Shown here piece by piece: positions 2,241 to 27,520 of a stretch of DNA of 60,851 bases. Position 1 is the first letter of the stretch. Each line of letters starts with the position of its first letter. The stretch comes from a virus. The DNA is taken from IMG/VR virus record IMGVR_UViG_3300045988_119927, one strand, 5' to 3'. The position numbers and the translations under genes were made by a program. Below the pieces are notes generated by a model, which saw only the letters and a list, made by a program, of their open reading frames with translations, made no database searches and was not told the DNA's origin.

Positions 2241-2269
2241 CGCGAAAATTTCAGGCTCCTTTATGGAGG
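2241..2269 (+). promoter_or_regulatory. Class-C promoter-like element
   Basis: Sequence CGCGAAAATTTCAGGCTCCTTTATGGAGG, directly after a stop codon and 9 nt before start 2278. Confidence 0.5.
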
Positions 2270-2277
2270 TGATTTAC

Positions 2278-2451
2278 ATGAGTAATGATATGGATCGTGT
2301 ATGGCAAGCAATGATAGAGGCTGCTTTGGAAGTGCAAAATGCTGTTATGAAATACTTAATGCGAAGGGCAGCAGCAGAGGCAGTCAAAATTCCTGAAGAA
2401 TGCTACGACGAACAGATAACAAAGAAAGCTCATGATGTGACTGATAATTAA
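2278..2451 (+). CDS. Hypothetical small protein
   Basis: ORF-track frame 2263-2451. ATG 2278 has GGAGG 8 nt upstream. A terminator follows. Confidence 0.4.
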   Translation: MSNDMDRVWQAMIEAALEVQNAVMKYLMRRAAAEAVKIPEECYDEQITKKAHDVTDN

Positions 2452-2458
2452 ATTGAAA

Positions 2459-2492
2459 GAGCCGTGGAGAAATCTGCGGCTCTTTCTTTTTT
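2459..2492 (+). terminator. Conserved-family rho-independent terminator (T1)
   Basis: GAGCCGTGG-AGAAAT-CTGCGGCTC followed by TTTCTTTTTT. Confidence 0.75.
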
Positions 2493-2499
2493 GTGCAGG

Positions 2500-2527
2500 C
2501 GCGAAAAAATCATGATATATTATGGAG
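2500..2527 (+). promoter_or_regulatory. Class-C promoter-like element abutting the tRNA-like gene
   Basis: Sequence CGCGAAAAAATCATGATATATTATGGAG. Its 3' end overlaps the 5' end of the tRNA-like sequence. Confidence 0.45.
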
Positions 2528-2595
2528 AAGATAGCTCAGCATGGTAGAGCGCCGCTTAACTGCGGAGGTCATGGGTCCAAATCCCATTCTTTTCT
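2525..2595 (+). tRNA. tRNA-like gene with aberrant anticodon arm (isotype unresolved)
   Basis: Acceptor GAGAAGA/TCTTTTC, D arm GCTC..GAGC and T arm ATGGG-TCCAAAT-CCCAT fold as a cloverleaf. The anticodon arm is only CCGC-TTAACT-GCGG (4 bp plus a 6-nt loop), and the T-loop reads TCC instead of TTC. Confidence 0.45.
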
Positions 2596-2617
2596 TTTTT
2601 TCCTATTCTAAGTTAGA

Positions 2618-2646
2618 CGCGAAAAACTCTGCTTCTTTTATGGAAG
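2618..2646 (+). promoter_or_regulatory. Class-C promoter-like element
   Basis: Sequence CGCGAAAAACTCTGCTTCTTTTATGGAAG, upstream of ORF 2650. Confidence 0.5.
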
Positions 2647-2649
2647 AAG

Positions 2650-2919
2650 ATGTCTTCCGAAGAACGAAAGGAGATTTTTACGATGCATTACAAGAGAGTA
2701 AAGGCTACTTACGACAGAGGTTATGTGAACGCAATGGACAAGATCCGTGTGTTTATCGAGAGCAACCAGAAAGTTATGTACATTGGTACAGGCGAGTATG
2801 CGAATGCCTCGACAGCACAGGTATCTTACACGAACGCGATAAACTTGATCCGGGCAAGTGGCCTGGTGCGAGCGGCTTGTAACAGAGGAGAATTATTTTT
2901 GATTCGCAACGACATCTGA
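2650..2919 (+). CDS. Hypothetical protein
   Basis: 89-aa ORF. An alternative in-frame start at 2683 has a better RBS (AAGGAG). Terminator T2 follows. Confidence 0.5.
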   Translation: MSSEERKEIFTMHYKRVKATYDRGYVNAMDKIRVFIESNQKVMYIGTGEYANASTAQVSYTNAINLIRASGLVRAACNRGELFLIRNDI

Positions 2920-2927
2920 GCCGTAAA

Positions 2928-2960
2928 GGGCTGTGGAGAAATCTACAGCTCTTTATTTTT
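2928..2960 (+). terminator. Conserved-family terminator (T2)
   Basis: GGGCTGTGG-AGAAAT-CTACAGCTC followed by TTTATTTTT. Confidence 0.75.
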
Positions 2961-3009
2961 CATCACGCACTGGACCGCCCGCAATGATATTTTGATAAAG
3001 GAGAAACGT

Positions 3010-3258
3010 ATGGACACCTATTTCGTCTATCTTATTTTCGCAATGGTAATCGGCTTTGCACTCGGCATGATGTTCTGCCGTCACATAGGAGATGTCAATC
3101 ATTCGGTCGGGGAGCTTATCATCGGTGAACCGGACGATCCCGACTGGCCGTATCTCTCGCTGAGTCTCGACGAGGAGGTGACAGATTTCGAGGGCGAGGA
3201 GTACGTTGTTCTGCGGGTAAATAAACTTGATCTCGCGCGAAAAAATCAGGGTGCTTAA
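3010..3258 (+). CDS. Hypothetical membrane protein
   Basis: RBS AAAGGAG lies 6 nt upstream. The N-terminal hydrophobic helix is YFVYLIFAMVIGFALGMMF. Confidence 0.45.
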   Translation: MDTYFVYLIFAMVIGFALGMMFCRHIGDVNHSVGELIIGEPDDPDWPYLSLSLDEEVTDFEGEEYVVLRVNKLDLARKNQGA

Positions 3259-3263
3259 TGGAG
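3236..3263 (+). promoter_or_regulatory. Class-C promoter-like element (overlaps the 3' end of ORF 3010-3258)
   Basis: Sequence CGCGAAAAAATCAGGGTGCTTAATGGAG. Confidence 0.45.
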
Positions 3264-3298
3264 AAAACTCCGAATTTACTTTGTAAAGGAGAATCAAA

Positions 3299-3703
3299 AT
3301 GGAAAACTACGAAAACAAAGAATTGCTGAAAGACGCGGCGAAAAAATCGCTGGAAAGTCTCAAAGACATGAAGCCGGGTACGGACGAGTACGACAAAGCA
3401 GCAAACATGGCGTTGAAGCTGTACGACATGCAGCTCAAGGATGAGGCGCAGGAAACCGAAAAGCAGCTGAAAGAGGACGAGTTCGTGCGGAAGGAACACG
3501 AAATCGAACTCGATCAGGCGAAAACGGCGAAATCGCGCAAGCTTGAGTGGGCAAAGATCGGCATGAAAGCTGTGGGCGGCGTGTTTACGGTTGGCTTGAC
3601 TGTATACTGGTCGATCTGCGAGGCTGGCGGTGTGACGCAGCTGTCGAGAGCAATCGGTGAAGGAGTCCGTGAGATGAGAAAAGGCTTTATAGAAAAAGAG
3701 TAA
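3299..3703 (+). CDS. Hypothetical protein (coiled-coil N-terminus, C-terminal TM)
   Basis: 134-aa ORF. The start ATG is embedded in GGAGAATCAAAATGG. Confidence 0.55.
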   Translation: MENYENKELLKDAAKKSLESLKDMKPGTDEYDKAANMALKLYDMQLKDEAQETEKQLKEDEFVRKEHEIELDQAKTAKSRKLEWAKIGMKAVGGVFTVGLTVYWSICEAGGVTQLSRAIGEGVREMRKGFIEKE

Positions 3704-3727
3704 AGGAGGAACCGAGGAGGGTCTGTG

Positions 3728-4120
3728 ATGAAAATTGCAGACTCTCTTTATTTTTTTATGAGGTATCACAACGATGTTCCAAAGGAATGGACGAACTACT
3801 ACGGAAGTGTATACCGATGCAACCATCCGGTCTATCGTGTGAGCACTTTATATTTTGAGCATGGGAAGGGGCTCTGCGTCATCCAGCAACGGTTTAATGA
3901 AAAAAGTAAAACTACATATTGGGGGCCGATAGACCCGTGGCTAGCAGATAAGATATACCTCCATGAAGGATTCAAGGAGTATTTTGACCACCATGCCAAG
4001 AGAAGAAATCAAAATGGCGAGTATCCAACGGTCACGGTCCGGCAGATCATGTGGGCGCTGCGGATGAAGCCTTTGCGCAAAGAACGCTGGGAGACCGTGT
4101 TTGACCGAAGCTTGATTTGA
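3728..4120 (+). CDS. Hypothetical protein
   Basis: ORF-track frame 3725-4120. ATG 3728 follows GAGGAGGG. Confidence 0.55.
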   Translation: MKIADSLYFFMRYHNDVPKEWTNYYGSVYRCNHPVYRVSTLYFEHGKGLCVIQQRFNEKSKTTYWGPIDPWLADKIYLHEGFKEYFDHHAKRRNQNGEYPTVTVRQIMWALRMKPLRKERWETVFDRSLI

Positions 4121-4135
4121 GAAAGGACGGTTTGT

Positions 4136-4570
4136 ATGTGCAAGTATTGTGATGCAGGTGCCATGCTCAGAAGCAGCGGCGTGGAGCTTCCGGGAGGACT
4201 GAAAGCTGCGATGGCACTTTGGATAACATGGAGGAAAGAGGGAACTCCTATTATTCGGGCTAAAATTGACTATGGCACCAAGGATAAAAATTTTAGGGGT
4301 TGTGCTGCCAGCCGTATTCCTGCTTGCAGCGTGGAGATCAAATACTGTCCGTTCTGCGGAAAAAAATTATTAAAAGACCCTATTTTTCCGCAAATGGCAG
4401 AAGAAAGTGCAATAGAAATCGCAAAAGACCCCGAACATGGCCCAGCAATCTTATACTGGTTCAAATCGGAATCCGGGTATTGGGCGGTAGACAACAGAAA
4501 CCATAGTGCATTTTCGATGTGCTTTTTGTCAAAAGAAGAGTGCCTCGCATATCTCGCTGCGAACGCCTGA
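4136..4570 (+). CDS. Hypothetical Cys-containing protein
   Basis: 144-aa ORF with MCKYC and a CPFCGKK zinc-ribbon-like pair. Confidence 0.55.
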   Translation: MCKYCDAGAMLRSSGVELPGGLKAAMALWITWRKEGTPIIRAKIDYGTKDKNFRGCAASRIPACSVEIKYCPFCGKKLLKDPIFPQMAEESAIEIAKDPEHGPAILYWFKSESGYWAVDNRNHSAFSMCFLSKEECLAYLAANA

Positions 4571-4598
4571 CGCGAAAAATTCTCCTTATATTATGGGA
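4571..4598 (+). promoter_or_regulatory. Class-C promoter-like element
   Basis: Sequence CGCGAAAAATTCTCCTTATATTATGGGA, immediately after the TGA stop. Confidence 0.45.
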
Positions 4599-4623
4599 TA
4601 AAGCCCGAAACAAAGGAGAACAT

Positions 4624-4764
4624 ATGATGAACGAATCTATTGGCAAGAAAATTTGGAACTATACGATTTCGGTCGGGCAGGTCATTACGACATTCCTGAT
4701 CGGGTGCGCTGTGGCACTCGTGATGTGGCTGTTCGTACAGATTTTCCGGCCGTCGAAAGACTGA
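4624..4764 (+). CDS. Small membrane protein
   Basis: RBS AAGGAG lies 6 nt upstream. It has one TM helix, VITTFLIGCAVALVMWLFV. Confidence 0.4.
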   Translation: MMNESIGKKIWNYTISVGQVITTFLIGCAVALVMWLFVQIFRPSKD

Positions 4765-4813
4765 TATTTTACGATAGACCGGCAAACGACAAGAAACTGG
4801 CTTTATCCGAAGA

Positions 4814-4850
4814 GAGCTTATGGAAACATGGGCTCTTTCTTTTATATTTT
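4814..4850 (+). terminator. Conserved-family terminator variant (T8)
   Basis: GAGCTTAT-GGAAAC-ATGGGCTC followed by TTTCTTTTATATTTTT. Confidence 0.6.
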
Positions 4851-4862
4851 TGGAGGTGCTTT

Positions 4863-5069
4863 ATGAAATACTTTACGAACAACGAGATGAAGGAAATTGC
4901 TGTCAAATTTATGAAAGAGCGTGTGTTGTATTATAAGTGGAACACCATGCTCTCTCTGCATGAAAAGTTTAAAAGCAAGAGCAAAAAGCCCTACGAGCCG
5001 TTCGAGAAATGCTTGTCGGATTGGCTTCGGGCACGAGAGGAGTTTATGAAAGCAATTAACCATCAGTAA
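4863..5069 (+). CDS. Hypothetical protein
   Basis: ATG follows TTTTTGGAGGTGCTTT. 68 aa. Confidence 0.45.
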   Translation: MKYFTNNEMKEIAVKFMKERVLYYKWNTMLSLHEKFKSKSKKPYEPFEKCLSDWLRAREEFMKAINHQ

Positions 5070-5087
5070 GTGCCACAGTAGTTTCAA

Positions 5088-5116
5088 CGCGAAAATTTCA
5101 GTTTGCTTTATGGAGG
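5088..5116 (+). promoter_or_regulatory. Class-C promoter-like element
   Basis: Sequence CGCGAAAATTTCAGTTTGCTTTATGGAGG. Confidence 0.5.
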
Positions 5117-5147
5117 TAAGAGGGCTTACATTGAAAGGAGAAAACCT

Positions 5148-5312
5148 ATGATGAAAGCTATTAAGAACTTTATGAACGACTGGTTTAAGACACTGGGTTA
5201 TGCATGTACGTGTACTGCCGTTATTTACGGAAGCATGTATGCATGGAATAAGTGGAAGGAAAAACGAGCACTCAAGAAGATGAAAGAGAGCAATCTGGAG
5301 GATAATATCTGA
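5148..5312 (+). CDS. Small membrane protein
   Basis: RBS AAAGGAG lies 7 nt upstream. It has a TM segment, LGYACTCTAVIYGSMYAW. Confidence 0.4.
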   Translation: MMKAIKNFMNDWFKTLGYACTCTAVIYGSMYAWNKWKEKRALKKMKESNLEDNI

Positions 5313-5362
5313 TAGATACACGCCCTCTTATCTTTTTTCATTTTATTTTTGGAGGTTGAACA

Positions 5363-5587
5363 ATGGAGGACATTATGATCATCCGCTCGGGCTTTATGCG
5401 CCGTATCATCTCGCAGATCATCAACAAGGCGCTGAAAAAGCAGATGCCTGGCATTGAGGTGGAGCTGAAGGACATTCAGGCAAACTGGCTGGACAAGGAA
5501 CAGAAGGTACATGTCCATCTGGAATTGGACGCCGACGTAACGAAGGCTCAGCTCAACACCATTTTGAAGAATGCCGGGGTGCTGTGA
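5363..5587 (+). CDS. Hypothetical protein
   Basis: 74 aa. It has the conserved leader TTTTTGGAGGTTGAACAATG. Confidence 0.45.
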   Translation: MEDIMIIRSGFMRRIISQIINKALKKQMPGIEVELKDIQANWLDKEQKVHVHLELDADVTKAQLNTILKNAGVL

Positions 5588-5614
5588 CGCGAAATTTTCA
5601 GTGCGCTTTATGAG
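5588..5614 (+). promoter_or_regulatory. Class-C promoter-like element
   Basis: Sequence CGCGAAATTTTCAGTGCGCTTTATGAG, immediately after the TGA stop. Confidence 0.45.
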
Positions 5615-5654
5615 ATGGTTAGTCTCAGAATTATATTTTGGAGGTTGAACAATT

Positions 5655-5876
5655 ATGAAGAAAGCATTGAAAATTGGTATTATGGGAATAATTGGATTTA
5701 TGCTGTTTGTATATGGAGGACTGAACGGATACTGCATGGCATGGAGTAGACTCTATGATAGAGGAAACTACATTGGTGCAGACGGACTTTCTTATATTAC
5801 AAGGCATACTTTCAAACCCGTATTTGCCAAGTACGTGGACTTCTTTATAGCAAGTTATGCCAAATTGAAGAACTGA
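5655..5876 (+). CDS. Hypothetical membrane protein
   Basis: 73 aa. It has the leader TTTTGGAGGTTGAACAATTATG and an N-terminal TM. Confidence 0.45.
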   Translation: MKKALKIGIMGIIGFMLFVYGGLNGYCMAWSRLYDRGNYIGADGLSYITRHTFKPVFAKYVDFFIASYAKLKN

Positions 5877-5882
5877 CTATGA

Positions 5883-5916
5883 GAGCTTACGAGAAATCGT
5901 AGGCTCTTTTATTTTT
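5883..5916 (+). terminator. Conserved-family terminator (T3)
   Basis: GAGCTTACG-AGAAAT-CGTAGGCTC followed by TTTTATTTTT. Confidence 0.75.
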
Positions 5917-5936
5917 CAAAATGGAGGTTGATAGAA

Positions 5937-7172: not shown

Positions 7173-7201
7173 CGCGAAAAATTCAGTCTGCTTTATGGAA
7201 G
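7173..7201 (+). promoter_or_regulatory. Class-C promoter-like element
   Basis: Sequence CGCGAAAAATTCAGTCTGCTTTATGGAAG, immediately after the TGA stop. Confidence 0.5.
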
Positions 7202-7237
7202 AAGATCCAAACTGAACAAATAAAGGAGATTTGAATT

Positions 7238-7462: not shown

Positions 7463-7471
7463 AAAAGGCGG

Positions 7472-7504
7472 GAGCTGTAGAGAAATCTACGGCTCTTTCT
7501 TTTT
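7472..7504 (+). terminator. Conserved-family terminator (T4)
   Basis: GAGCTGTAG-AGAAAT-CTACGGCTC followed by TTTCTTTTT. Confidence 0.8.
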
Positions 7505-8341: not shown

Positions 8342-8370
8342 CGCGAAAAATTCAGCTTGCTTTATGGAGG
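8342..8370 (+). promoter_or_regulatory. Class-C promoter-like element
   Basis: Sequence CGCGAAAAATTCAGCTTGCTTTATGGAGG. Confidence 0.5.
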
Positions 8371-8753: not shown

Positions 8754-8768
8754 TGTCAGATAAAGCGA

Positions 8769-8807
8769 GAGCTGTAGAGAAATCTGCAGCTCTTACTTTT
8801 TTATTTT
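8769..8807 (+). terminator. Conserved-family terminator (T5)
   Basis: GAGCTGTAG-AGAAAT-CTGCAGCTC followed by TTACTTTTTTATTTT. Confidence 0.75.
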
Positions 8808-12324: not shown

Positions 12325-15300
12325 ATGATAGATTTCCTTATGATCGCAACGCGGACCGGAAAGCGCGGTGTGATCGAGATATATCCGAAATTCATCATTA
12401 AACGGTCGAAAGACCTTATGATCCGAGGCTCGGATTTCTATGCGATCTGGTTGGAAGAACGTGGATTGTGGAGCACGGACGAGCAGGATGCGCTGCAGCT
12501 CATCGACCGGGAGCTTGATATTTACGCAAATGAGCACAAAGAGCTGTTTGACGGCGGCTCTAGAGTGCTTCATATGTGGGATGCCGAGTCCGGAATGATC
12601 GACAACTGGCACAAATATTGCCAGAGGCAGATGCGAGACAATTATCATACGCTTGACGAGACATTGATATTTGCAAACACCCCTGTCAAAAAAGAGAGCT
12701 ATGCATCCAAACGGCTGCCGTATCCACTGGAAGCAGGAAGTATCAGTGCCTATGAAGAACTCATGAGCACTTTATATTCTCCCGGAGAACGTGAGAAGAT
12801 AGAATGGGCCATTGGCGCGATCGTCGATGGCGATTCGAAGAAGATTCAAAAGTTCCTCGTGCTCTACGGCCCGCCCGGAAGCGGTAAATCCACTATTCTG
12901 AACATCGTGCAGAAACTTTTCGAAGGATATTGGTCGGTTTTCGACTCTAAAGTGCTAGGCTCATCCTCGAACGCTTTCGCACTGGAGGCATTCAAGACGA
13001 ACCCGCTTGTTGCAATCCAGCACGACGGCGATCTGTCGAGGATCGAAGACAACACAAGACTGAACTCGCTGGTCTCTCACGAGACGATGCTGGTGAACGA
13101 GAAGTTCAGGAGCCAGTATGCGAGTCAGTTCAAGTGCTTTATGTTCCTTGGCACGAACAAGCCGGTCCGGATCACAGATGCCAAGTCGGGCCTGATCCGA
13201 AGACTTATCGATGTCGAGCCGAGCGGCGAAAAGATTCCGGCCAAAAAGTATCGGGACCTTGTTAGTAAAGTTGACTTCGAGCTTGGTGGGATCGCCTGGC
13301 ACTGCAAGGAGATCTACGAGGAAAACAAGCACCTCTACGACGAGTATGTTCCCACAAGGATGCTCGGAGCATCGAACGATTTCTACAACTTCATGTTGGA
13401 TTCCTACTATGAGTTCAAGAGGTCGGATGGCGTATCGCTCAAGCGGGCCTGGGCAATGTACAACACCTACAATGAGGAGGCAAAGGTATCGTATCCGTAC
13501 TCCCGGCGCGCTTTCCGTGAGGAGTTGATGAACTACTTTACGGATTACAAAGAGCGTTCAGAAGATATGAACGGGGAGAGAGTCCGCAGTTACTACAGCG
13601 GATTCCGAGCCGACAAGTTCAAGGAGTTTCTTGAGCAGCCGAAGGAGGAACGGCCGCCGGAAGAAGCGCATATTTCGTGGATCGAGTTCAAAGAGCAGCA
13701 TTCTCTCTTCAATGATATTTGCAGGGACTGTCCGGCACAGTACGCGACTGAAGAAGGCACTCCTATGCAAAAATGGGAGAATGTCAGAAGTAAGTTGTCA
13801 GAGCTGGACACTTCGAGACTTCACTATGTGAAGGTTCCAGAGAATCACATTGTCATCGACTTTGATATTAAAGGACCTGATGGCAAGAAAAGCTTCGAGT
13901 TGAATCTGGAGGCTGCATCAAAGTGGCCGAAAACGTACGCGGAACTCAGTAAATCTGGTGCGGGCATCCACCTGCATTATATTTACAGCGGGGACGCAAC
14001 GAAGCTCAGCAGAGTCTACGATGAAAACATCGAGATAAAGGTGTTCACTGGAAATTCTTCTCTTAGAAGAAAGTTATCGAAGTGCAATGATATTTCCGTA
14101 GCGTCTATCAGTAGTGGCTTGCCATTGAAGGGAGAAAAAATGGTTGACACGAAGCAGATCCAGAATGAGAAGCATCTTCGCATTCTGATTAAGAAAGCAC
14201 TGGCCAAAGAGATCAGTCCCTACACAAAACCGAGTGTAGACTTCATCGCTCACATTATGGATGAGGCGTACGAGGGAAATGTCCCGTACGATGTCGATGA
14301 CATGCGCAATTCGATTCTGGCTTTCGCTGCAAACAGCACGAATCAGGCTGAAGCATGTTTGAAAGCAGTATCGAAGATGCATTTCAAATCGAAGGAAGAG
14401 GTGAAAGACTCTCGGGCCGGCGAGAATGAGACCCCTATCGTATTCTTCGACTGTGAGGTGTTCCCGAACCTTTTCCTCGTGAACTGGAAGTTTGCCAAAA
14501 ATGACCTCATTCACAGGATGATCAATCCCAGCCCGGAAGAAATTGAAGCCCTTACGAAATATCGGCTTATTGGTTTCAACAACCGGAAGTACGATAACCA
14601 CATTCTCTGGGGGAGGATGATCGGCATGTCGAATGAGCAGCTCTATGCGCTTTCGAACCGCATCATCAACGAACATACCGGTTTCTTCGGCGAGGCGTAC
14701 AATCTGTCCTACACTGATATTTACGACTTCTCGTCCAAAAAGCAGAGTCTGAAGAAGTTCGAGATCGAGCTGGGTATTCATCATCAGGAACTTGGCTTAC
14801 CGTGGGACCAGCCGGTGCCGGAAAGCCTCTGGGATAAGGTCGCTGAGTATTGTGACAATGATGTCATTGCCACGGAAGCCGTCTTCTATTCCAAGAAGCG
14901 GCAGGCAGACTTCGTTGCTCGTGAGATTCTGGCAGACCTTGCCGGGATGACGGTCAATGACACGACCAACACGTTGACTACTCGCGTCATCTTTGGAAAA
15001 GAGAAGCACCCGAAGCTTGTCTATACTGACCTTGCAACGGGCGAACAGGACACTTTGACTGAGGTTGAGCCTGATATTCTGGTCGGGAAGAACATCATCA
15101 ATGCTTTCCCGGGTTACGAGTGGGTCAAGGGCGAGGATGGTCGGATGCACAATATGTTCCGTGGCACGGATTTGGGCATGGGCGGCTATGTCTATGCAGA
15201 GCCGAACATGTACTATAATGTGGCGCTTCTGGACGTGGCGTCGCTGCACCCGCATTCCGCCGTTGCAATGAACTACTTTGGCGAATACACCAAGCATTTC

Positions 15301-16326
15301 AATGACCTGATGGAGGTTCGAATCCATGTTAAGCATGGCGAGTACGATAAGGCCAAGGAACTCTTTGGCGGAAAGCTGTCCAAGTATCTGGACGACCCTG
15401 CGCAGGCGAAAGCTTTGGCGCAGGCACTGAAAATCGCCATTAACTCTGTCTACGGCCTGACCAGCGCGACCTTCGACAATCCTTTCCGGAACCCCAAGAA
15501 CGCCAACAACATTGTGGCGCTTCGAGGGGCTTTATTTATGCGTACTTTGCAGGATGAGGTACAGCAGCGTGGGTTCACGGTCGCCCACATCAAGACCGAT
15601 TCCATCAAGATCCCCGGTGCAACGCCGGAGATTATTGACTTCTGCATGAAGTTTGCGGAGAAGTATGGATATACCTTTGAGCATGAGGCTACTTACGAGA
15701 AGATGTGCCTCGTGAACAATGCGGTTTATATCGCAAAGTACATGGATGCGACGGACTGCAAGGCGCAATATGGATACGTTCCTGAGGATAACGAGAAGGA
15801 AGGCGGTAAGTGGACGGCAACCGGAACCCAGTTCCAGATCCCGTATGTCTTTAAGACATTGTTTTCCAAAGACCCGATCCAGTTCGAGGACCTTTGCGAG
15901 ACGAAGAGTGTCTCCAAAGGTGCCATCTACCTCGATAAAAATGAGGGACTGGCGGAAGGTGAGCACAATTATATTTTCGTTGGCCGCGTCGGTCAGTTCT
16001 GTCCCATCGTCAAAGGAGCTGGCGGCGCGCTGCTTCTGCGGGAATCGGGCGTTGACGATGCAGGCAATCGGAAATATGCATCTGTGACGGGCGCAAAAGA
16101 TTACCGGTGGCTCGAAAGCGAGATGGTTTATCAGCTTCATATGGAGGAGTCCATTGACAAGGAATACTTCAATAAGGAAGTTGATGATGCCGTCAAGGAA
16201 ATCGCCAAATATGGTGATTTTGAGTGGTTTGTTGCGGATGATTCGGGTGAACCGCCTTGGCAGAAGCCTGATATTCCGTGGGACGATGTGCAGGACGAAG
16301 CTGCACAGAATTTTAATGTAAGATAA
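12325..16326 (+). CDS. Fused replicative protein: SF3/D5-like NTPase + AEP primase + family-B DNA polymerase
   Basis: 1333-aa ORF. It has Walker A GPPGSGKST. AEP-like motifs are IDFDIK and GIHLHY. Exo motifs are FFDCEVF, NNRKYDNHIL and YCDNDVIAT. PolB motifs are DVASLHPHS, KIAINSVYG and IKTDSIKI. Confidence 0.85.
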   Translation: MIDFLMIATRTGKRGVIEIYPKFIIKRSKDLMIRGSDFYAIWLEERGLWSTDEQDALQLIDRELDIYANEHKELFDGGSRVLHMWDAESGMIDNWHKYCQRQMRDNYHTLDETLIFANTPVKKESYASKRLPYPLEAGSISAYEELMSTLYSPGEREKIEWAIGAIVDGDSKKIQKFLVLYGPPGSGKSTILNIVQKLFEGYWSVFDSKVLGSSSNAFALEAFKTNPLVAIQHDGDLSRIEDNTRLNSLVSHETMLVNEKFRSQYASQFKCFMFLGTNKPVRITDAKSGLIRRLIDVEPSGEKIPAKKYRDLVSKVDFELGGIAWHCKEIYEENKHLYDEYVPTRMLGASNDFYNFMLDSYYEFKRSDGVSLKRAWAMYNTYNEEAKVSYPYSRRAFREELMNYFTDYKERSEDMNGERVRSYYSGFRADKFKEFLEQPKEERPPEEAHISWIEFKEQHSLFNDICRDCPAQYATEEGTPMQKWENVRSKLSELDTSRLHYVKVPENHIVIDFDIKGPDGKKSFELNLEAASKWPKTYAELSKSGAGIHLHYIYSGDATKLSRVYDENIEIKVFTGNSSLRRKLSKCNDISVASISSGLPLKGEKMVDTKQIQNEKHLRILIKKALAKEISPYTKPSVDFIAHIMDEAYEGNVPYDVDDMRNSILAFAANSTNQAEACLKAVSKMHFKSKEEVKDSRAGENETPIVFFDCEVFPNLFLVNWKFAKNDLIHRMINPSPEEIEALTKYRLIGFNNRKYDNHILWGRMIGMSNEQLYALSNRIINEHTGFFGEAYNLSYTDIYDFSSKKQSLKKFEIELGIHHQELGLPWDQPVPESLWDKVAEYCDNDVIATEAVFYSKKRQADFVAREILADLAGMTVNDTTNTLTTRVIFGKEKHPKLVYTDLATGEQDTLTEVEPDILVGKNIINAFPGYEWVKGEDGRMHNMFRGTDLGMGGYVYAEPNMYYNVALLDVASLHPHSAVAMNYFGEYTKHFNDLMEVRIHVKHGEYDKAKELFGGKLSKYLDDPAQAKALAQALKIAINSVYGLTSATFDNPFRNPKNANNIVALRGALFMRTLQDEVQQRGFTVAHIKTDSIKIPGATPEIIDFCMKFAEKYGYTFEHEATYEKMCLVNNAVYIAKYMDATDCKAQYGYVPEDNEKEGGKWTATGTQFQIPYVFKTLFSKDPIQFEDLCETKSVSKGAIYLDKNEGLAEGEHNYIFVGRVGQFCPIVKGAGGALLLRESGVDDAGNRKYASVTGAKDYRWLESEMVYQLHMEESIDKEYFNKEVDDAVKEIAKYGDFEWFVADDSGEPPWQKPDIPWDDVQDEAAQNFNVR

Positions 16327-17901: not shown

Positions 17902-18033
17902 TCTGTGATATTTCGAGTGCCGGGGTCGGTCTCTGGTTGAATGCACCAGTCCTATGAGTGCCCACGTCGCAAATGGCGTTCTCAGCAGGGGACAGCTCGA
18001 TTGATATTTATGAATGATTTGGAGGTTGACGTC

Positions 18034-18447
18034 ATGAAACGAATCAAAGTGCTCCGTATCAAAGCGCATTGCTATCCTGAAATCGTCCGGATTCCGCTCG
18101 GTCTGGACTCCTTGCAGAAGGAAGTTGGAGGACCGATTCAGGCGGTATATCCGTGGGATGATCCCGTGGCACTGATCTGCAATGAAGAAGGTAAACTGGA
18201 TAGTGATGCCGTGGAGCATTATAACCGGGTTCTCGCAACTGAGATTGGTGTGCCTTATGACATCGTTGTAGGGACGTTCCTGATCGTTGGGCTTACGGAA
18301 GATGATTTCGGATCACTGAGTCCGGAGCTTCTTGAGAAGTATGAGAAACTGTTCCATGACCCGGAAGAATTTTCCGTTCGGACGGATGCACATGGAAAGA
18401 TATATCTGGATGTTCATCCTTGCAAACCGGAGGACGGCGCGAAATAA
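18034..18447 (+). CDS. DUF3846-like protein
   Basis: The ATG follows GGAGGTTGACGTC. Pattern: LDSLQKEVGGPIQAVY...CNEEGKL...GTFLIVG. Confidence 0.5.
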   Translation: MKRIKVLRIKAHCYPEIVRIPLGLDSLQKEVGGPIQAVYPWDDPVALICNEEGKLDSDAVEHYNRVLATEIGVPYDIVVGTFLIVGLTEDDFGSLSPELLEKYEKLFHDPEEFSVRTDAHGKIYLDVHPCKPEDGAK

Positions 18448-18461
18448 TCAGCCTGCATGAA

Positions 18462-18494
18462 GAGCCGTTGAGAAATCTGCGGCTCTTTTCTTTT
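18462..18494 (+). terminator. Conserved-family terminator (T6), abutting the tRNA
   Basis: GAGCCGTTG-AGAAAT-CTGCGGCTC followed by TTTTCTTTT. Confidence 0.75.
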
Positions 18495-18573
18495 GGGATA
18501 GTAGCTTAGTCAGGTTCAAAGCAGCCAGCTCATAACTGGTTCATCGCGGGTTCGAATCCTGCCTGTCCCACCA
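18495..18573 (+). tRNA. tRNA with CAT anticodon (Met, or Ile2 if lysidinylated), encoded CCA
   Basis: Canonical cloverleaf: acceptor GGGATAG/CTGTCCC, anticodon arm GCCAG-CTCATAA-CTGGT, T arm GCGGG-TTCGAAT-CCTGC, and 3' ACCA. Confidence 0.85.
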
Positions 18574-20298: not shown

Positions 20299-20542
20299 TA
20301 TTTGTGATTTTTTGAGGCTTGCTGCGACGATCTCTGAGAAACTTGCAGATGTCATAAACGCGATTTCGGAATGCAGCGAGAAAGTGACGGCTTGTTTTAT
20401 GGACTTGTTTGAAGAAATCAAGGGGCAGCCATTGAAGATGATTCTACAGAAGCTGCGTCCTGACTACAAGGACAAGTGTGAAATCCGGTGGCTGAATATT
20501 CCCAACAAGGTTATGCAGGGAAGAATCAGGAGGTTCTGCTAA
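20288..20542 (+). CDS. Hypothetical protein
   Basis: 84-aa ORF overlapping the helicase stop. Confidence 0.4.
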   Translation: MENDICDFLRLAATISEKLADVINAISECSEKVTACFMDLFEEIKGQPLKMILQKLRPDYKDKCEIRWLNIPNKVMQGRIRRFC

Positions 20543-21872: not shown

Positions 21873-22407
21873 TTCTCGGGATTGCACAGGCAGACCGAAC
21901 GATCCAAGGAGACGAACGGTATACGCCCGACTATGCGGTATACCCATTGCTCGAATTTTTAGGAGACAAAAAAAGCAGCTTGTCTGGTGTCCATTTGATA
22001 AAGCGGATTCTGCGTATGTAAAGGTGCTCTCTGAAGCTGGATACAGAGTGATTCCATCCCATATCGATGACGGTATGGATTATTTTACATATGAACCTGA
22101 AAATTGGACTGTGATGGTATCGAACCCTCCATTCAGTAAGAAGGATGAGGTACTTGAACGGGCCTATTCGCTAGGAAAACCTTTTGCGCTGCTACTTCCT
22201 ATCAATGCAATTCAAGGGAAAAGGCGATTTGATATTTACCAAAACCGATTGCAGCTATTATGTTTCGACCAGCCGATAGGGTATATATCGCCATCTATGA
22301 TATGTCCGAGCGAGGCAACACCGTTTGCTAGTGCCTATTTTTGCAATGACTTCTTACCAAGTAAACTTGAACTTAGACGATTGTATAAGGAGAAGACGCG
22401 AAAATAA
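21869..22407 (+). CDS. N6-adenine DNA methyltransferase interrupted by a -1 frameshift at an A7 run
   Basis: The N-terminal part (GDERYTPDYAVYPLLEFL) is in frame 2 up to the A7 run at 21968-21974. It continues in frame 1 as KKQLVWCPFDKADSAYVKVL...VSNPPFS (motif IV NPPF). Confidence 0.6.
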
Positions 22408-22424
22408 CAAGTTCCTTTATGGAG
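22397..22424 (+). promoter_or_regulatory. Class-C promoter-like element
   Basis: Sequence CGCGAAAATAACAAGTTCCTTTATGGAG, overlapping the methyltransferase stop. Confidence 0.45.
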
Positions 22425-22821: not shown

Positions 22822-22831
22822 CTTCATTATG

Positions 22832-22865
22832 GAGCCGTAGAGAAATCTGCGGCTCTTTATTTTTT
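22832..22865 (+). terminator. Conserved-family terminator (T7)
   Basis: GAGCCGTAG-AGAAAT-CTGCGGCTC followed by TTTATTTTTT. Confidence 0.8.
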
Positions 22866-22884
22866 CACGAAAGGAATAAGAAAT

Positions 22885-23494: not shown

Positions 23495-23499
23495 GGTGA

Positions 23500-23964: not shown

Positions 23965-24185
23965 ATGAGTCATTTGGAACTTGTACTCAGTTAGCTAGAA
24001 GGTGCGCTGTTTGTCCTAAAGTCTCTACCTGTGATCATAAAAGAATGGAGCATCTTGGATATATTATTCCAATCCCAGATCTTAATGTCAGTATTGTTGT
24101 CACAAGAGCCAATGGAAAGAGCCTCGGTCAGCTCGAAATGGTTGATTCACTGATGAAAAGGAGATTTAATTATGAAAATCATTGA
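23961..24185 (+). CDS. Hypothetical Cys-containing protein
   Basis: The ATG follows GGAGGTTTTTAC. 74 aa. Confidence 0.4.
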   Translation: MNESFGTCTQLARRCAVCPKVSTCDHKRMEHLGYIIPIPDLNVSIVVTRANGKSLGQLEMVDSLMKRRFNYENH

Positions 24186-24915
24186 ACCAAAATACGAAAT
24201 CCTCACTGATATTTCTGATGGCGGCATCAAAGAGCTTCAGCAGATCGAGCGTGTGGCGCGGGTCTGCTACAAGAGCGAGGATAAGATCACGCCGGAGGGT
24301 GAGTCGGCAAAGAAACTGGTGGGCTTTCTGGTGAAGCAGGGGCATGAGGCTATGCTGGAGCATTCGCAGCTGTCCGTGCTGTTTACCTGTGACCGGGCCA
24401 TTGCCAATGAGCTGGTGCGGCACCGCATCGCGAGCTTTGCACAGGAGAGCACCCGGTACTGCAATTATGCAGGAGAGAAGTTTGGCGGGGAACTGAGCTT
24501 TATTCGGCCGTTTTATATTCCTAACGAGCCTAATGAAAATGCAATCAACGCAGCTTCTTCGACAGAAGAATTTATAAAGCTCGAAACGGACTATCAAATC
24601 CACCATGCGTGGTACTGGGCTTGTGATGATGCTGAAAAAAGCTACAAAACTCTCATCGCCAATGGTCTCCGTCCCGAACAGGCCCGTTGTGTGTTGCCGT
24701 TGTGCCTGAAGACCGAGATCGTGGTGACTGCCAACTACCGTGAGTGGCGCAATATCTTCAAGCTGCGTACTCCTGTGGCGGCTCATCCTCAGATGCGTGA
24801 GCTGATGTGCCCGCTGCTGAAAGAGCTTCAGAGCAAGATCCCGGTGGTGTTCGATGATATTTACACGTTCTGGCCGGCGGATGACCAGACGCGGAAGGGG
24901 AGTATGGTGAAGTAA
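24172..24915 (+). CDS. thyX: Flavin-dependent thymidylate synthase
   Basis: The ThyX signature RHRIASFAQESTRY (RHRxxSxxxxSxR) is present in a 247-aa ORF. Confidence 0.9.
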   Translation: MKIIEPKYEILTDISDGGIKELQQIERVARVCYKSEDKITPEGESAKKLVGFLVKQGHEAMLEHSQLSVLFTCDRAIANELVRHRIASFAQESTRYCNYAGEKFGGELSFIRPFYIPNEPNENAINAASSTEEFIKLETDYQIHHAWYWACDDAEKSYKTLIANGLRPEQARCVLPLCLKTEIVVTANYREWRNIFKLRTPVAAHPQMRELMCPLLKELQSKIPVVFDDIYTFWPADDQTRKGSMVK

Positions 24916-24917
24916 CT

Positions 24918-25172
24918 ATGAAAAAGCATATTATTTGTTTTGTTGCATGTCTGATGATGCTTGTTGGCTGTGTGGTTCTGTGTAGCTGCGGCAACTATAA
25001 GGTGCTAAATAAGACGTTCACTTATACATGGGCGCAGATCAAGCTACCCGACGGAGCAATCATTGAGGGTAAGGTAGATAGCTGGACTGATTATGGAGAT
25101 GAACTGTTGCAAATCACGATTGATGGTACCACATATCTGGTTCATGCAGCGGATGCCGTTATGAAAACCTGA
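24918..25172 (+). CDS. Putative lipoprotein
   Basis: Signal-like N-terminus MKKHIICFVACLMMLVGCVVLCSCG. Confidence 0.5.
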   Translation: MKKHIICFVACLMMLVGCVVLCSCGNYKVLNKTFTYTWAQIKLPDGAIIEGKVDSWTDYGDELLQITIDGTTYLVHAADAVMKT

Positions 25173-25198
25173 GAGGGAAAGGATATGGTGAAGTAAGC

Positions 25199-25531
25199 AT
25201 GAAGAAAATTGACGAACGATATATTGAGGTATTAGATCAATTCGGATTCGGCTTATACACAACTACAGCTGGATGTAATCTCTATCATGATAGTTCATGG
25301 GGATCATATATTGTAAACTTTAATGGAGACGACTTTGTCGAGATGTTCATTGGTTATGCTGAAACCTTCGATCCGAATGAGTATGTAAGTTTACATATCA
25401 AGAGTCACAGGGTGATTAAAGATATTGGCGAGATGCTTAAAAGTGCAAAAGAAATTCAGATTTTGCTGTTAAAAGTAGCCATAGAATTTGTGAAAATCAG
25501 CAAAGAAAGTATGGTGAAAGCTGATGTATAA
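25199..25531 (+). CDS. Hypothetical protein (low-GC)
   Basis: 110-aa ORF. Confidence 0.5.
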   Translation: MKKIDERYIEVLDQFGFGLYTTTAGCNLYHDSSWGSYIVNFNGDDFVEMFIGYAETFDPNEYVSLHIKSHRVIKDIGEMLKSAKEIQILLLKVAIEFVKISKESMVKADV

Positions 25532-25670
25532 GGTCTTATTCACTATTGGGTTCGCTTGTCAAATCTTCTATTTCGGGAGTCGTTACGGGGTAAAACTTGA
25601 GAAAGATATTACTGAAGTCATATACTGCGTAGGTGTTGTATTGGCGCTAGCATCTTTTGCTCTGTTTTGA
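25524..25670 (+). CDS. Small membrane protein
   Basis: 48-aa ORF with two hydrophobic helices, below the ORF-track cutoff. Confidence 0.3.
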   Translation: MYKVLFTIGFACQIFYFGSRYGVKLEKDITEVIYCVGVVLALASFALF

Positions 25671-25685
25671 AAGAAGGTGATTACG

Positions 25686-26024
25686 ATGCAGAAAAGAACG
25701 TATGATTTTCTTGTAAAGATGCGGATTCCGATGGTGGGCGATGCAGTTGAAATGATGGGCGATGCAGTTGAAATGACTATTGATTTGCTCAATTCGCATC
25801 GGTCTGTTCCGATGATTGATATTTGCGCTGCGATTGCAGAGAAGTATCACACGAATGTGAAAAGCGTCACGGCTCGCCTTGTGAGAGTTGTGGATGCGAT
25901 GGAGTATCGGAGTGGGGTGTATCCTAATCCTGAAATGGAAGAGCTCCGTATTGCATTCAGACTGGATAAATGGACGCTTAAACGATTCCTGTATGCTGCG
26001 GCGAGGAGGCTTATGGGCCAATGA
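25686..26024 (+). CDS. Spo0A C-terminal (DNA-binding) domain-like protein
   Basis: [27 protein letters not shown] parallels Spo0A [28 protein letters not shown]. There is no receiver domain. Confidence 0.5.
   Translation: [112 protein letters not shown]
25731..25772 (+). repeat. 21-bp tandem duplication inside the Spo0A_C-like gene
   Basis: ATGGTGGGCGATGCAGTTGAA / ATGATGGGCGATGCAGTTGAA, encoding [14 protein letters not shown]. Confidence 0.9.
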
Positions 26025-26087
26025 AGAGCCGTTATATTTGCTTTGCGATGCATTTGGCTGTGTAGCTGTATCCTGAACTAACAAGCA

Positions 26088-26120
26088 AGAGGCGCGGATT
26101 TTTCTGCGCCTCTTATTTTT
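26088..26120 (+). terminator. Rho-independent terminator
   Basis: AGAGGCGC ... GCGCCTCT followed by TATTTTT. Confidence 0.7.
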
Positions 26121-26143
26121 ATCCGAGGAGGTGGTACTTTTGC

Positions 26144-26172
26144 TTGACGATTCGACTCCTACATGATATTCT
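26144..26172 (+). promoter_or_regulatory. Canonical sigma-A type promoter with extended -10
   Basis: TTGACG, a 17-nt spacer ending in TGA, then TATTCT. Confidence 0.6.
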
Positions 26173-26197
26173 TGTACTAGTATAAGGAGGTGCTCTT

Positions 26198-26527
26198 ATG
26201 GCACGAACGGTAAAATGTCCTAGTTGTGGCGCTGAGCTTACGGTGAAAGAAGGCAATCGAGACTTCATGTTCTGCGAATATTGTGGGACGAAAGTACGGC
26301 TTGATGACTATCAGGAGACGCACAGGTTTGTAGATGAAGCAAAAGTCAAGCGGGTTGAAGCTTTCAAAGACTTAGCGATGAAGAAGATGGAAATGGATGA
26401 ACAAAAGCGTAAAGACGAAAAAGATAATGAAGCAGAACGCAGAAAAATGGAGCCTGTGTATTTGAGCTTACTCATAGCGCTTCCTATAATCTTTTTTATT
26501 CTCGCTAAATTATTTGGCGCTGAATAA
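26198..26527 (+). CDS. Zinc-ribbon protein with C-terminal TM
   Basis: CPSCG...CEYCG, a charged helix, then LSLLIALPIIFFILAKLF. Confidence 0.5.
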   Translation: MARTVKCPSCGAELTVKEGNRDFMFCEYCGTKVRLDDYQETHRFVDEAKVKRVEAFKDLAMKKMEMDEQKRKDEKDNEAERRKMEPVYLSLLIALPIIFFILAKLFGAE

Positions 26528-26534
26528 CATAGAA

Positions 26535-26570
26535 AGGTCTCGATATAAAATTCGGGGCCTTTTCTTTTTT
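26535..26570 (+). terminator. Rho-independent terminator
   Basis: AGGTCTCG ... CGGGGCCT followed by TTTCTTTTTT. Confidence 0.65.
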
Positions 26571-26573
26571 ATC

Positions 26574-26600
26574 TGGCAGTAGACTCTGCCAATTTTTATT
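26574..26600 (+). terminator. Second hairpin / terminator
   Basis: TGGCAG-tagact-CTGCCA followed by ATTTTTATT. Confidence 0.5.
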
Positions 26601-26650
26601 TGCCGCTTTTTGTTAATTTTGTGATAATAATTGAAAAAGCATCAATTTTC

Positions 26651-26668
26651 TGGCCAAAAACCCATTTT
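26651..26668 (+). repeat. Iteron R1 TGGCCAAAAACCCATTTT
   Basis: Direct reading. Half-sites GTGGCCAG and CGGCCAC follow. Confidence 0.7.
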
Positions 26669-26732
26669 GTGGCCAGAAATTTTAGAAAAACGGCCACATA
26701 TTTTTACGTAGATACGTTATAAATATGCGCTT

Positions 26733-26750
26733 TGGCCAAAAACCCACTTT
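26733..26750 (+). repeat. Iteron R2 TGGCCAAAAACCCACTTT
   Basis: 17 of 18 positions are identical to R1. Confidence 0.7.
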
Positions 26751-26803
26751 TTTCTTTAAGTTAATTAAAAAATGAAAAAAATAATATATATAATAGAACA
26801 GAA

Positions 26804-26821
26804 AAAATGGGCTTTTGGCCA
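26804..26821 (-). repeat. Iteron R3 (inverted) TGGCCAAAAGCCCATTTT
   Basis: The reverse complement of AAAATGGGCTTTTGGCCA. 17 of 18 positions match R1. Confidence 0.7.
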
Positions 26822-26869
26822 CAACTTGTTTTTCATGCATTGCCCCCATATCCTCTGTCGATATTAACC

Positions 26870-26898
26870 TTGTAAAATAACGTCGGATAGTGTATTAT
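26870..26898 (+). promoter_or_regulatory. Canonical sigma-A type promoter
   Basis: TTGTAA, a 17-nt spacer, then TATTAT, about 50 nt upstream of ATG 26949. Confidence 0.55.
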
Positions 26899-26948
26899 AA
26901 AAAGCAGCACATTAGTGGCTGACTTCTTGTGAGTATGAGGTAAAGCGT

Positions 26949-27395
26949 ATGGAATACATCGAGGAACTTGCTAAAAATTGGAAACAGTATGGTTACTCAT
27001 TTGATGCGAGAGAAATTCTTCCGAACGGTGATGAAGCATGGGTGTATTCAACCCTGGAGTTAGGACTACCAGTTCTTTGGTTGAAACATCCAGATGGAAG
27101 TTTCGAACATTATGTCATACATACGGATGGATATGACAAACCAACTGGCGAGCATTGGTGTTTTTGGTGCCATTGTCAAATGGAGCGATACGAAAATATT
27201 TGGAAAGTTCCTATCTGGCGATGCCCAAAGTGTGAAGAAGAGCACTACGAAGAAGACGTGGATTTATGTAGTGCTCCGACCGAAGAAGCAAGTTATGCCG
27301 ATGATGAACTCGAACCTGAAGAAGAATGGCTCGATACATACTATAGAGAAAATCCCTATATACCTCACGACGAATACGATTTTGACGGGTTTTAA
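26949..27395 (+). CDS. Hypothetical Cys-cluster protein with strongly acidic C-terminus
   Basis: 148 aa. It has CFWCHC...CPKCEEEH and an acidic tail, DDELEPEEEWLD...DEYDFDGF. Confidence 0.5.
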   Translation: MEYIEELAKNWKQYGYSFDAREILPNGDEAWVYSTLELGLPVLWLKHPDGSFEHYVIHTDGYDKPTGEHWCFWCHCQMERYENIWKVPIWRCPKCEEEHYEEDVDLCSAPTEEASYADDELEPEEEWLDTYYRENPYIPHDEYDFDGF

Positions 27396-27415
27396 TTTAA
27401 TAGTCTTTTAAGATT

Positions 27416-27449
27416 GCCTCTGCGCGAAAAACGCAGAGGCTTTTCTTTT
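27416..27449 (+). terminator. Rho-independent terminator
   Basis: GCCTCTGCG-CGAAAAA-CGCAGAGGC followed by TTTTCTTTT. Confidence 0.8.
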
Positions 27450-27490
27450 GCCCTTTTTTACAAAAATTAACACTTTTTCACAAAAATTAC

Positions 27491-27520
27491 CGCGAAAAAA
27501 ACAGCCTCTTTTATGAGGAG
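27491..27520 (+). promoter_or_regulatory. Class-C promoter-like element heading the nuclease-RNAP operon
   Basis: Sequence CGCGAAAAAAACAGCCTCTTTTATGAGGAG. Confidence 0.45.

Follow-up and report, generated by a model that had tools for sequence, protein, structure and literature searches.

A strand-polar repeated element of an FP_oengus-like phage as a candidate promoter for its own single-chain two-barrel RNA polymerase

The viral DNA of IMG/VR record IMGVR_UViG_3300045988_119927 (60,851 nucleotides (nt); this whole stretch is called the window) carries between its genes a repeated element that is always written on the same strand, and the question that it raises is which enzyme, the host's or the phage's, would read it as a start signal. 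As the first 20 kb of the window share 78% identity with Faecalibacterium phage FP_oengus, the source is a relative of that phage, and the gene order is the one of FP_oengus: small early genes, three DUF6353 genes, a 1333-amino-acid (aa) primase-polymerase, an ssDNA-binding protein, a helicase and ThyX are followed by an endonuclease, an exonuclease and a 922-aa protein, and then by the structural genes. A tyrosine integrase gene lies on the minus strand at 185-1405, and nearly all other features are on the plus strand. In virome samples of the human gut, FP_oengus-like phages have been detected at rates of up to 40% (PMC5883640). We think that the element is probably a promoter read by the phage's own single-chain two-barrel RNA polymerase (RNAP), i.e., the 922-aa protein encoded at 28389-31157 on the plus strand.

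Eleven ungapped plus-strand copies, all of them listed in an earlier note made from the letters of this DNA, were found at 2241-2268, 2500-2527, 2618-2645, 3236-3263, 4571-4598, 5088-5115, 5588-5615, 7173-7200, 8342-8369, 22397-22424 and 27491-27518. A weight matrix built from the copies in the window scores them at 34-50 bits (47.6 bits for the copy at 2241), and the best minus-strand site reaches -6.9 bits. When the literal consensus is searched with at most three mismatches, five matches are obtained in the window against none in 100 shuffles; the copy at 8342 is an exact match. The next-best plus-strand site in the window has 11.7 bits (20377-20404; CGAGAAAGTGACGGCTTGTTTTATGGAC), sits at the 3' border of the helicase gene region and is probably a chance match or a decayed copy. 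The check proposed in the earlier note, i.e., a model of the copies and a scan of related genomes, was carried out on FP_oengus and 80 IMG/VR relatives, which were gathered by way of the neighbouring DUF6353 gene (52-99% protein identity), and returned 848 plus-strand and no minus-strand copies. FP_oengus itself has 13 strong and two weak copies, at syntenic places. The spacing of the two blocks is indeed fixed, with zero gaps in the window copies and in the 848 copies of the relatives.

The length of 28 nt first assigned to the element proved too short. Counting the C of CGCG as position 0, two bases (R-A) come before it and a purine-only run extends to about position 31. The logo of the 409 unique copies in the FP_oengus group, on which the hairpin statistics below are also based, reads RA-CGCGAAAAA-TT-C-A-g-nn-T-S-C-t-TTATG-R-R-R, with a conserved span from -2 to about +31; after this core follows a run nearly without C and T up to position 31, which is an independent observation because positions 28-31 lie outside the matrix. 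Of the bipartite structure that had been described, the two blocks are present, but the N4 spacer between them has preferences of its own, for T at position 16 and for C at position 18. The two degenerate copies do exist as well, both on the plus strand (18438-18465, 7.7 bits; 60659-60686, 2.8 bits), and both keep the upstream block (CGCGAAATAATCAG, CGCGGAATTTTCAG), are without the 3' block and run directly into a hairpin and a T-run. The first overlaps the stop of the open reading frame (ORF) at 17941-18447 and passes into a GAGAAATC-loop terminator before tRNA-Met (18495-18570), with an equivalent half-copy in FP_oengus at 18490, and in the second, at the right end of the window, CGCGGAATTTTCAG is inside the hairpin and a 19-T run follows.

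The copies stand before genes, as had been claimed, and the distance, previously given as 10-60 nt to the next ribosome-binding site (RBS), measures 13-55 nt when taken between the ATG core and the start codon. That most of them begin directly after a stop codon did not hold, since only four of the eleven abut one (2241, 4571, 5588 and 7173); the TGA or TAA overlaps the element at its leading R-A, positions -3 to -1 (TGA at 4571, 5588 and 7173). Two further copies come directly after terminators, the one at 2500 by 14 nt and the one at 2618 after the T-run of a tRNA-like gene. The copy at 8342 stands at the head of a long operon extending into the primase-polymerase gene (12325-16326), and the copy at 27491 heads the endonuclease-exonuclease-RNAP operon, in agreement with the earlier note. 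The invariant ATG was also considered as the start codon of a leaderless ORF, and this was rejected, as it is in frame with the next gene in 3 of 10 copies, which is the chance level.

Downstream of the genes, a terminator family with seven plus-strand members in the window (2455-2486, 2923-2956, 5881-5908, 7470-7497, 8767-8794, approx. 18460-18489 and 22831-22856) combines a covarying stem of 9-13 base pairs (bp), an invariant 8-nt loop, GAGAAATC, and a T-run. The loop word occurs 476 times on the plus and 8 times on the minus strand of the relatives, and such a fixed loop, unusual for ordinary terminators, suggests a dedicated termination signal; Arthrobacter phage Giantsbane has a separate terminator family of its own (CCCCACAAGGGCTC...). 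With the element upstream and the terminator downstream, the early region is therefore built of cassettes, each consisting of element, gene or genes, and terminator. The occurrence of CGCGAAAAA in the loop of another terminator, at 27416-27440, is not kept in FP_oengus and is probably a coincidence.

Three independent kinds of features limit where the RNA can begin. The copy at 2500 adjoins, as was noted before, a tRNA-like gene (2525-2595, plus strand; Rfam tRNA 50.2 bits; ARAGORN label "tRNA-???"), whose first base is element position 25. The corresponding gene begins at 2936 in FP_oengus, which is element position 26, at position 27 in the oral phage D_HF5_2C and in the prophage loci L102 and L179, and at position 31 in Lactococcus phage P162. 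Additionally, Shine-Dalgarno sequences begin at positions 25-27 in several gene families and in distant prophages, e.g., TTTATGAAAGGAGTGATTTATATG, and also in window copy 2241, where GGAGGTGA doubles as the RBS for the 57-aa ORF that begins at 2278. The minimum-energy fold of the downstream sequence places the first base of a stem at position 22, 23 or 24 in 63% of the 409 unique copies, and the 3' arm then falls at 34-38; the mean energy of this fold is -5.5 kcal/mol compared with -3.7 for shuffles. From these tRNA-like, Shine-Dalgarno and hairpin starts it follows indirectly that the RNA 5' end is at or before position 25. We infer from these sequence features that it lies within the invariant ATG (positions 22-24), A22 or G24 being the simplest choices.

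The hairpin at this place is made of at least ten different stems. In the window these are GGAAGA/TCTTCC after the copy at 2618, GGAG/CTCC after 3236, GGG/CCC after 4571, TGAGA/TCTCA after 5588 and TGGA/TCCA after 7173 and 22397; behind the copy at 27491, a 13-bp leader hairpin from position 22 is followed by a U-run. Because loop lengths differ among the paralogous hairpins, a complement-covariation table was preferred to RNAalifold. The 5' arms find their complements in 64% (TGAG to CTCA), 69% (GAGA to TCTC), 33% (GGAG to CTCC), 22% (GGAA to TTCC) and 39% (TGGG to CCCA) of cases, percentages that are not independent counts because the copies share descent, and non-cognate combinations are zero or nearly so. 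Orthologous copies show compensatory changes: the TGGA/TCCA after 22397 is ATGAG/CTCAT in FP_oengus, and the 13-bp stem from A22 behind 27491 is present in both phages with A-U swapped for G-C. In the leader of the polymerase operon (27513-27560 in the window, 27706-27755 in the FP_oengus locus L001, 45960-46020 in L002) the long hairpin from the predicted +1 is followed by UUUUAUUUUU and an RBS, an arrangement kept from Faecalibacterium to Arthrobacter phages; it resembles an attenuator and, judged by its layout, could set the polymerase level.

The tRNA-like gene deserves a remark of its own. It is conserved across the phage group directly behind one element copy (L001 2936-3005, L005 20080-20159, L003 18674-18740, and also L102, L174 and L179), with no encoded CCA. 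Its anticodon arm is non-standard, with a 4-bp stem and a 6-nt loop in the window and shorter or longer loops in the relatives. It might be a decoy, a primer or a regulatory RNA.

The hairpins and the tRNA-like RNAs could also be taken as parts of an RNA-level signal, in which an endonuclease would cut at ATG/GGAG and a hairpin would protect the new ends of long transcripts made from few promoters. The covarying hairpin after the core is selected as structure, tRNA-like RNAs require 5' processing in any case, and GGAG recalls the cleavage site of T4 RegB. However, the 22 conserved bases upstream show neither pairing nor covariation and are kept as sequence, several copies lie just past strong terminators, where read-through RNA would be scarce, and relatives retain the upstream TTACA...TATAAT register in front of a wholly different downstream RNA. 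A cleavage signal of this kind is in our opinion highly improbable.

If the element starts transcription, the first enzyme to consider is the host RNAP. The earlier note had called the element unlike sigma-A promoters, and in the window group this is borne out, as the -35/-10 spacing, the -10 bases and the distance to the start all fail. A single hexamer resembles a -35 element (TTCAG here, TTACA in relatives), and it stops 5 nt short of the AT-rich box, whereas 17 nt upstream of that box no conservation is seen. Among the 409 unique copies, 95-99% have TTTATG as the box, with T in place of A-11 and G in place of T-7, the two -10 bases that sigma-A flips out. The predicted RNA 5' end would be 0-2 nt past the box, compared with 6-8 nt for sigma-A, and a -10 at positions 18-23 would put +1 at about 29-31, with the consequence that tRNA-like RNAs and the Shine-Dalgarno sequences from 25-27 would be truncated. 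Every register for a -35/-10 pair or an extended -10 was tried in the window group and none works.

A host promoter could nevertheless be imagined in which sigma-A uses TTTATG or TATAAT as its -10, possibly helped by a DNA-binding phage activator that occupies CGCGAAAA at about -30, much as T4 middle promoters combine a MotA box with a -10, and in which the phage polymerase serves the late genes only, as YonO does in SPbeta. Such a view gains from the actinobacterial and lactococcal relatives, whose positions 18-23 are a perfect TATAAT with A-11 and T-7 present, from the centring of CGCGAAAA near -30 if the box is a -10, from the bacterial-type intrinsic terminators that close the cassettes, from the P162 tRNA-like gene that begins at position 31, and from YonO itself, which transcribes only late genes (PMC5467207). 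What speaks against it, apart from the truncation already described, is that TTTATG, with both essential bases replaced, is conserved at approx. 95-99% in the window and the 80 relatives, that the TTACA hexamer is just 5 nt from the box, and that conservation across hosts from two phyla extends to positions not read by sigma-A, namely C17/18, G24 and the run of purines or GAGACCCC. Among 20 other early-half proteins no sigma domain was found, and no candidate activator or sigma factor except the helix-turn-helix (HTH) part of the polymerase, which is the only protein found to carry a sigma domain. We regard a host-RNAP promoter as unlikely. Sigma-70-like sites are nonetheless present elsewhere, as the earlier note said, with 9/12 consensus matches on the plus strand at 26144-26172 (TTGACG-17-TATTCT with TG) and 26870-26898 (TTGTAA-17-TATTAT); behind each are one gene and a terminator, and by position they are possible entry points of host RNAP upstream of the RNAP operon.

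The candidate reader of the element, the 922-aa protein (PHROG 4291), is by its motif and predicted fold a genuine two-barrel polymerase; the earlier note had named it as an RNAP candidate. It has SGADFDGD at residues 526-533 (DFDGD at 529-533), and motifs of the DFDGD type form the metal loop of the beta-prime subunit of cellular RNAP. Its AlphaFold model (mean predicted local distance difference test, pLDDT, of 79.9) was matched by Foldseek to QDE-1 (E 3e-9), P74-26 gp62 (8f5m; E 4.5e-5) and plant RDR2, and then to beta-prime/Rpb1 chains; a sequence search of the PDB with the polymerase gave no relative, and the matches come from the fold comparison alone. The C terminus contains a Sigma70_r4_2 domain (residues 899-920, 39.5 bits, above the Pfam cut-off) and the N-terminal part an HTH. 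It is the only polymerase-like gene that was found, and it is of the two-barrel and not of the T7 family. In FP_oengus the protein is annotated as "RNA-dependent RNA polymerase". The DxDGD motif and terminal HTH domains have been noted already, and the polymerase has been shown to mark out a "supercluster" that unites actinobacteriophages with Lactococcus 1706-like phages and FP_oengus (bioRxiv 10.1101/842583). An N-terminal peptide, HYGTxxxSGRYPWGSGENP (residues 21-41), is invariant in 46 of 46 aligned polymerases from both phyla and is predicted to be disordered (pLDDT <50); it may serve for docking or targeting. Neither this peptide nor the position of the gene just upstream of the structural genes is evidence of packaging.

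Polymerase and element are found together far beyond the FP_oengus group. By tblastn, 251 phage records were found to encode the polymerase (Arthrobacter 95, Gordonia 55, Streptomyces 54, Lactococcus 13, and others). Elements in relatives were detected by a repeat search and a core regular expression, mismatch-tolerant clustering of 14-mers for motifs in the relatives having returned coding bias only, and all seven polymerase-encoding genomes examined, from six host genera, possess a repeated, intergenic element restricted to the plus strand. Across hosts of two phyla these elements align without gaps, with CA at positions 11-12 and ATG at 22-24, and in the phages of Arthrobacter, Streptomyces, Gordonia and Lactococcus and in the oral phage they have the general form TTaCA-N5-TATAATGA. 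Giantsbane has 13 copies of tCGCrrrwwTTaCA-N5-TATAATGAgaag, Bilo 4-5 copies of tCGCAcGtTTTaCa...TATAATGAGACCCCTAC, Gravy 11 copies of tCGCAGAAAtTACACGTCCTATAATGAGACCCCTA, ending in ...TATAATGAGACCCCTA, P162 13 copies of TTTTAwGTTTTACAyrCCCTATAATGAaAGG, and D_HF5_2C nine copies of ttCGCAGaAATTACAnnnCCTATAATGAA. Intermediate forms such as TATTATGAAA occur in prophage clusters of other Clostridia and in a Pradoshia metagenome-assembled genome. A scan of the genome collection with a 14-base degenerate pattern gave, among the matches listed, at least about ten true co-oriented clusters in other Clostridia and Bacilli, and most of the other listed matches are single chance matches. In Giantsbane one copy precedes the operon of VRR-nuclease, Cas4 exonuclease and polymerase, and the leader hairpin and U-run are kept in comparison with the window.

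The Giantsbane repeats are not new as such, since they were described as recombination "boundary sequences" (bioRxiv 10.1101/2020.01.10.891226). The 32-bp boundary repeats of Arthrobacter cluster AU are the homologous element, with a CGC-rich block, TTACA and then TATAATGA in the same register, and in that preprint they are read as recombination-promoting and are not linked to the polymerase gene (10.1101/2020.01.10.891226); our literature search found no paper that ties Giantsbane-type repeats to the polymerase. This brings in a further explanation, namely that the copies are asymmetric sites for a protein that does not initiate transcription, either stoperator-like sites at which a repressor would block elongation in the lysogen, or boundaries that promote recombination between gene cassettes, as proposed for Giantsbane. 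Like stoperators, the copies are numerous, have a single orientation and lie between genes or over gene ends (PMC13313380), the preprint ties the repeats to a rearranging gene cassette (10.1101/2020.01.10.891226), and the half-copies at 18438 and 60659 retain the upstream block alone. Unlike the stoperators of cluster A mycobacteriophages, which are restricted to temperate phages with a gene for the matching repressor, the element is also present in strictly lytic relatives (Giantsbane, Bilo, Gravy and P162), which have no annotated integrase or repressor, and a lysogeny repressor site is therefore unlikely. For recombination, tRNA 5' ends, RBSs and hairpins would not have to stand at a set distance, nor would a downstream purine-rich run be required, and the position right after terminators suits a restart of transcription and not its blocking. 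Protein sites of this type seem to us very unlikely.

Returning to the phage polymerase as the reader, a mechanism may be proposed. The element would span from about -24 to +8, which is the layout used by single-polypeptide phage polymerases and is unlike a -35/-10 promoter. The fused HTH domains, i.e., the C-terminal sigma-region-4-like one and the N-terminal one, would bind the blocks CGCGAAAA and TTCAG/TTACA, the latter being a -35-like hexamer drawn near the start, which would be convenient for an enzyme of small size. The strands would then separate at the T-rich positions 19-21 and synthesis would set off within the ATG core, and in most copies the purine-rich RNA start would immediately form a hairpin at the 5' terminus that probably acts as a stabiliser. 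A GAGAAATC-loop terminator would close each cassette. The first polymerase could come from host-RNAP read-through from 26144 or 26870 across the terminator at 27416-27440, or from a virion-borne protein, and as the copy at 27491 heads the operon of the polymerase itself, self-amplification would follow once some polymerase is present. If the polymerase is not injected, the element would be a middle or auto-amplified signal and not an early one. A more specific form of the proposal, which we offer only tentatively, is that the 922-aa enzyme is self-sufficient and sigma-independent, with its C-terminal HTH reading TTaCA at about -14, the second HTH reading CGCGAAAA at about -22, and the core starting at the ATG.

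Several points weigh against the assignment to the phage polymerase. It rests on co-occurrence and geometry; the replicase and the polymerase are found in the same approx. 250 records, and as every relative has the polymerase, with no polymerase-less relative in the phage collection, there is no negative control for the co-occurrence. The perfect TATAAT of the actinobacterial and lactococcal cores would be usable by host sigma-A holoenzyme, and the start of the P162 tRNA-like gene at position 31 fits a start of the sigma-A type. Several genes past terminators have no element (approx. 3011, 5928, 7539 and 8806). The cassettes end in hairpin and U-run terminators, a signal typical for bacterial RNAP, and YonO-type enzymes are without the flap domain that bacterial RNAP needs for hairpin-dependent pausing and termination (PMC5467207); such enzymes can, however, have terminators of their own, as in P23-45 (PMC10770324). 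Finally, the polymerase gene lies behind its own element and a strong terminator (27416-27440), so that the first polymerase molecules would have to come from elsewhere.

Among known systems, Thermus phage P23-45 is the closest in the kind of enzyme, and T7-type promoters are the closest in layout. The two-barrel polymerases of P23-45 have one motif each, mapped by Cappable-seq and chromatin immunoprecipitation, an AT-rich one for the tape-measure-fused virion RNAP gp96 and a GC-rich one for the non-virion RNAP gp64 (PMC10770324). The window resembles this system in that a phage-encoded single-chain DxDGD two-barrel polymerase occurs together with a phage-specific one-strand motif before early genes, common to the relatives that encode the enzyme, and with dedicated conserved terminator motifs; the structure that the polymerase model matches (8f5m, as above) is the P74-26 homologue of gp64. 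It differs in that the motif sequences are unrelated, HTH domains are fused to the polymerase, a single polymerase gene is present and is not tape-measure-fused, the hosts are Bacillota and Actinomycetota, and the element is known from sequence alone. YonO of the Bacillus prophage SPbeta is likewise a single-polypeptide two-barrel RNAP of a temperate Bacillota siphovirus, encoded just before the late genes (PMC5467207), but it has one mapped start for one late operon and the sequence of P_yonO is undefined, whereas the window has 11 copies, mostly in the early/replication half.

The likeness to T7 concerns the arrangement only. The window enzyme belongs to another family than the Pol I-like one of T7, and the sequences are unrelated. 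The promoters of T7, T3 and SP6 are contiguous over approx. 25-30 bp, from about -24 to +6, are AT-rich before +1 and give a purine-rich initial transcript. TATA-GGGAGA may thus be set beside TATA-ATGAGA or TTT-ATGGAG, and in both cases many co-oriented copies exist, one of them before the polymerase region. The early promoters of N4, which the earlier note had invoked as the analogy for an injected enzyme, share with our proposal a signal specific for a phage polymerase and an associated hairpin. In N4 the hairpin of the virion-RNAP promoter is upstream of +1 and is part of recognition, whereas here it is at or after the predicted +1 and variable in sequence, and no inverted repeat was found within element positions 0-21. 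Tested for the defining features of the sigma-70, T7 and N4 promoter families, the element lacks them and is outside all three.

Promoters are unknown for almost all single-chain two-barrel polymerases of the YonO/QDE-1-like phage type, and for YonO, with one start site known, self-reliant promoter finding is still an open question (PMC5467207). The element is the first candidate promoter consensus for the HTH-fused two-barrel polymerase family, and what is gained is a candidate promoter with a predicted +1, natural variants in two phyla, a candidate recognition HTH and matching terminators. If the proposal is true, more than 250 sequenced phages with hosts in Actinomycetota and Bacillota would share one promoter grammar, one of the most prevalent human gut phages among them, and the element with the GAGAAATC-loop terminators would be a complete, portable and host-independent transcription system with positive feedback on the polymerase gene. 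A compact orthogonal set of polymerase, promoter and terminator for Gram-positive hosts would be a useful tool.

Other strand-polar motifs accompany the element. The late motif TCAAAATGGA that the earlier note had connected with it is real and strand-polar (21 plus, 1 minus), but a common initiation core was not supported by our tests, although the motif and element positions 18-26 have C-WWW-ATGGA in common. It can be written (T)CAAAATGG(A) or wwTCAAAATGGa and is confined to the late half, with most window copies at 33559-60233 and 13-15 plus-strand copies against one minus-strand copy in the late half of FP_oengus (L086). About eight copies are start contexts of RBS, spacer and ATG; the remaining ones are within ORFs and occupy all three frames, for which reason an explanation as start-codon context only fails.

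The octamer TGATATTT is found 38 times on the plus strand and never on the minus strand of the window, and 1374 times against 8 in the 80 relatives (1.3 Mb). Of the 38 window copies, 35 are within 1367-31529 and the others at 58316, 60539 and 60573; it is also present in FP_oengus (L001) and in loci L006-L085. The motif is sharply bounded, with only an A at -2 conserved beyond its eight bases, and occurs both between genes and within ORFs, there in the two frames that avoid a TGA stop. It is often placed just before the RBS past an element-less terminator (2985, 7515), and twice around the hairpin after the polymerase gene (31506, 31529). Judged by this distribution, a stoperator-like, Chi-like, pause or minimal-promoter signal is possible.

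In every relative examined, the nuclease-polymerase operon is preceded by a stretch of non-coding, AT-rich DNA that contains short iterons (26640-26830 in the window, 26900-27090 in L001, 45590-45930 in L002, 44890-45240 in L003 and 38890-39110 in L004). By its composition it could be a replication origin or an operator array. One 21-mer of this stretch, TTGGCCAAAAACCCACTTTTT, is nearly identical in the window phage and in Arthrobacter phage Giantsbane.

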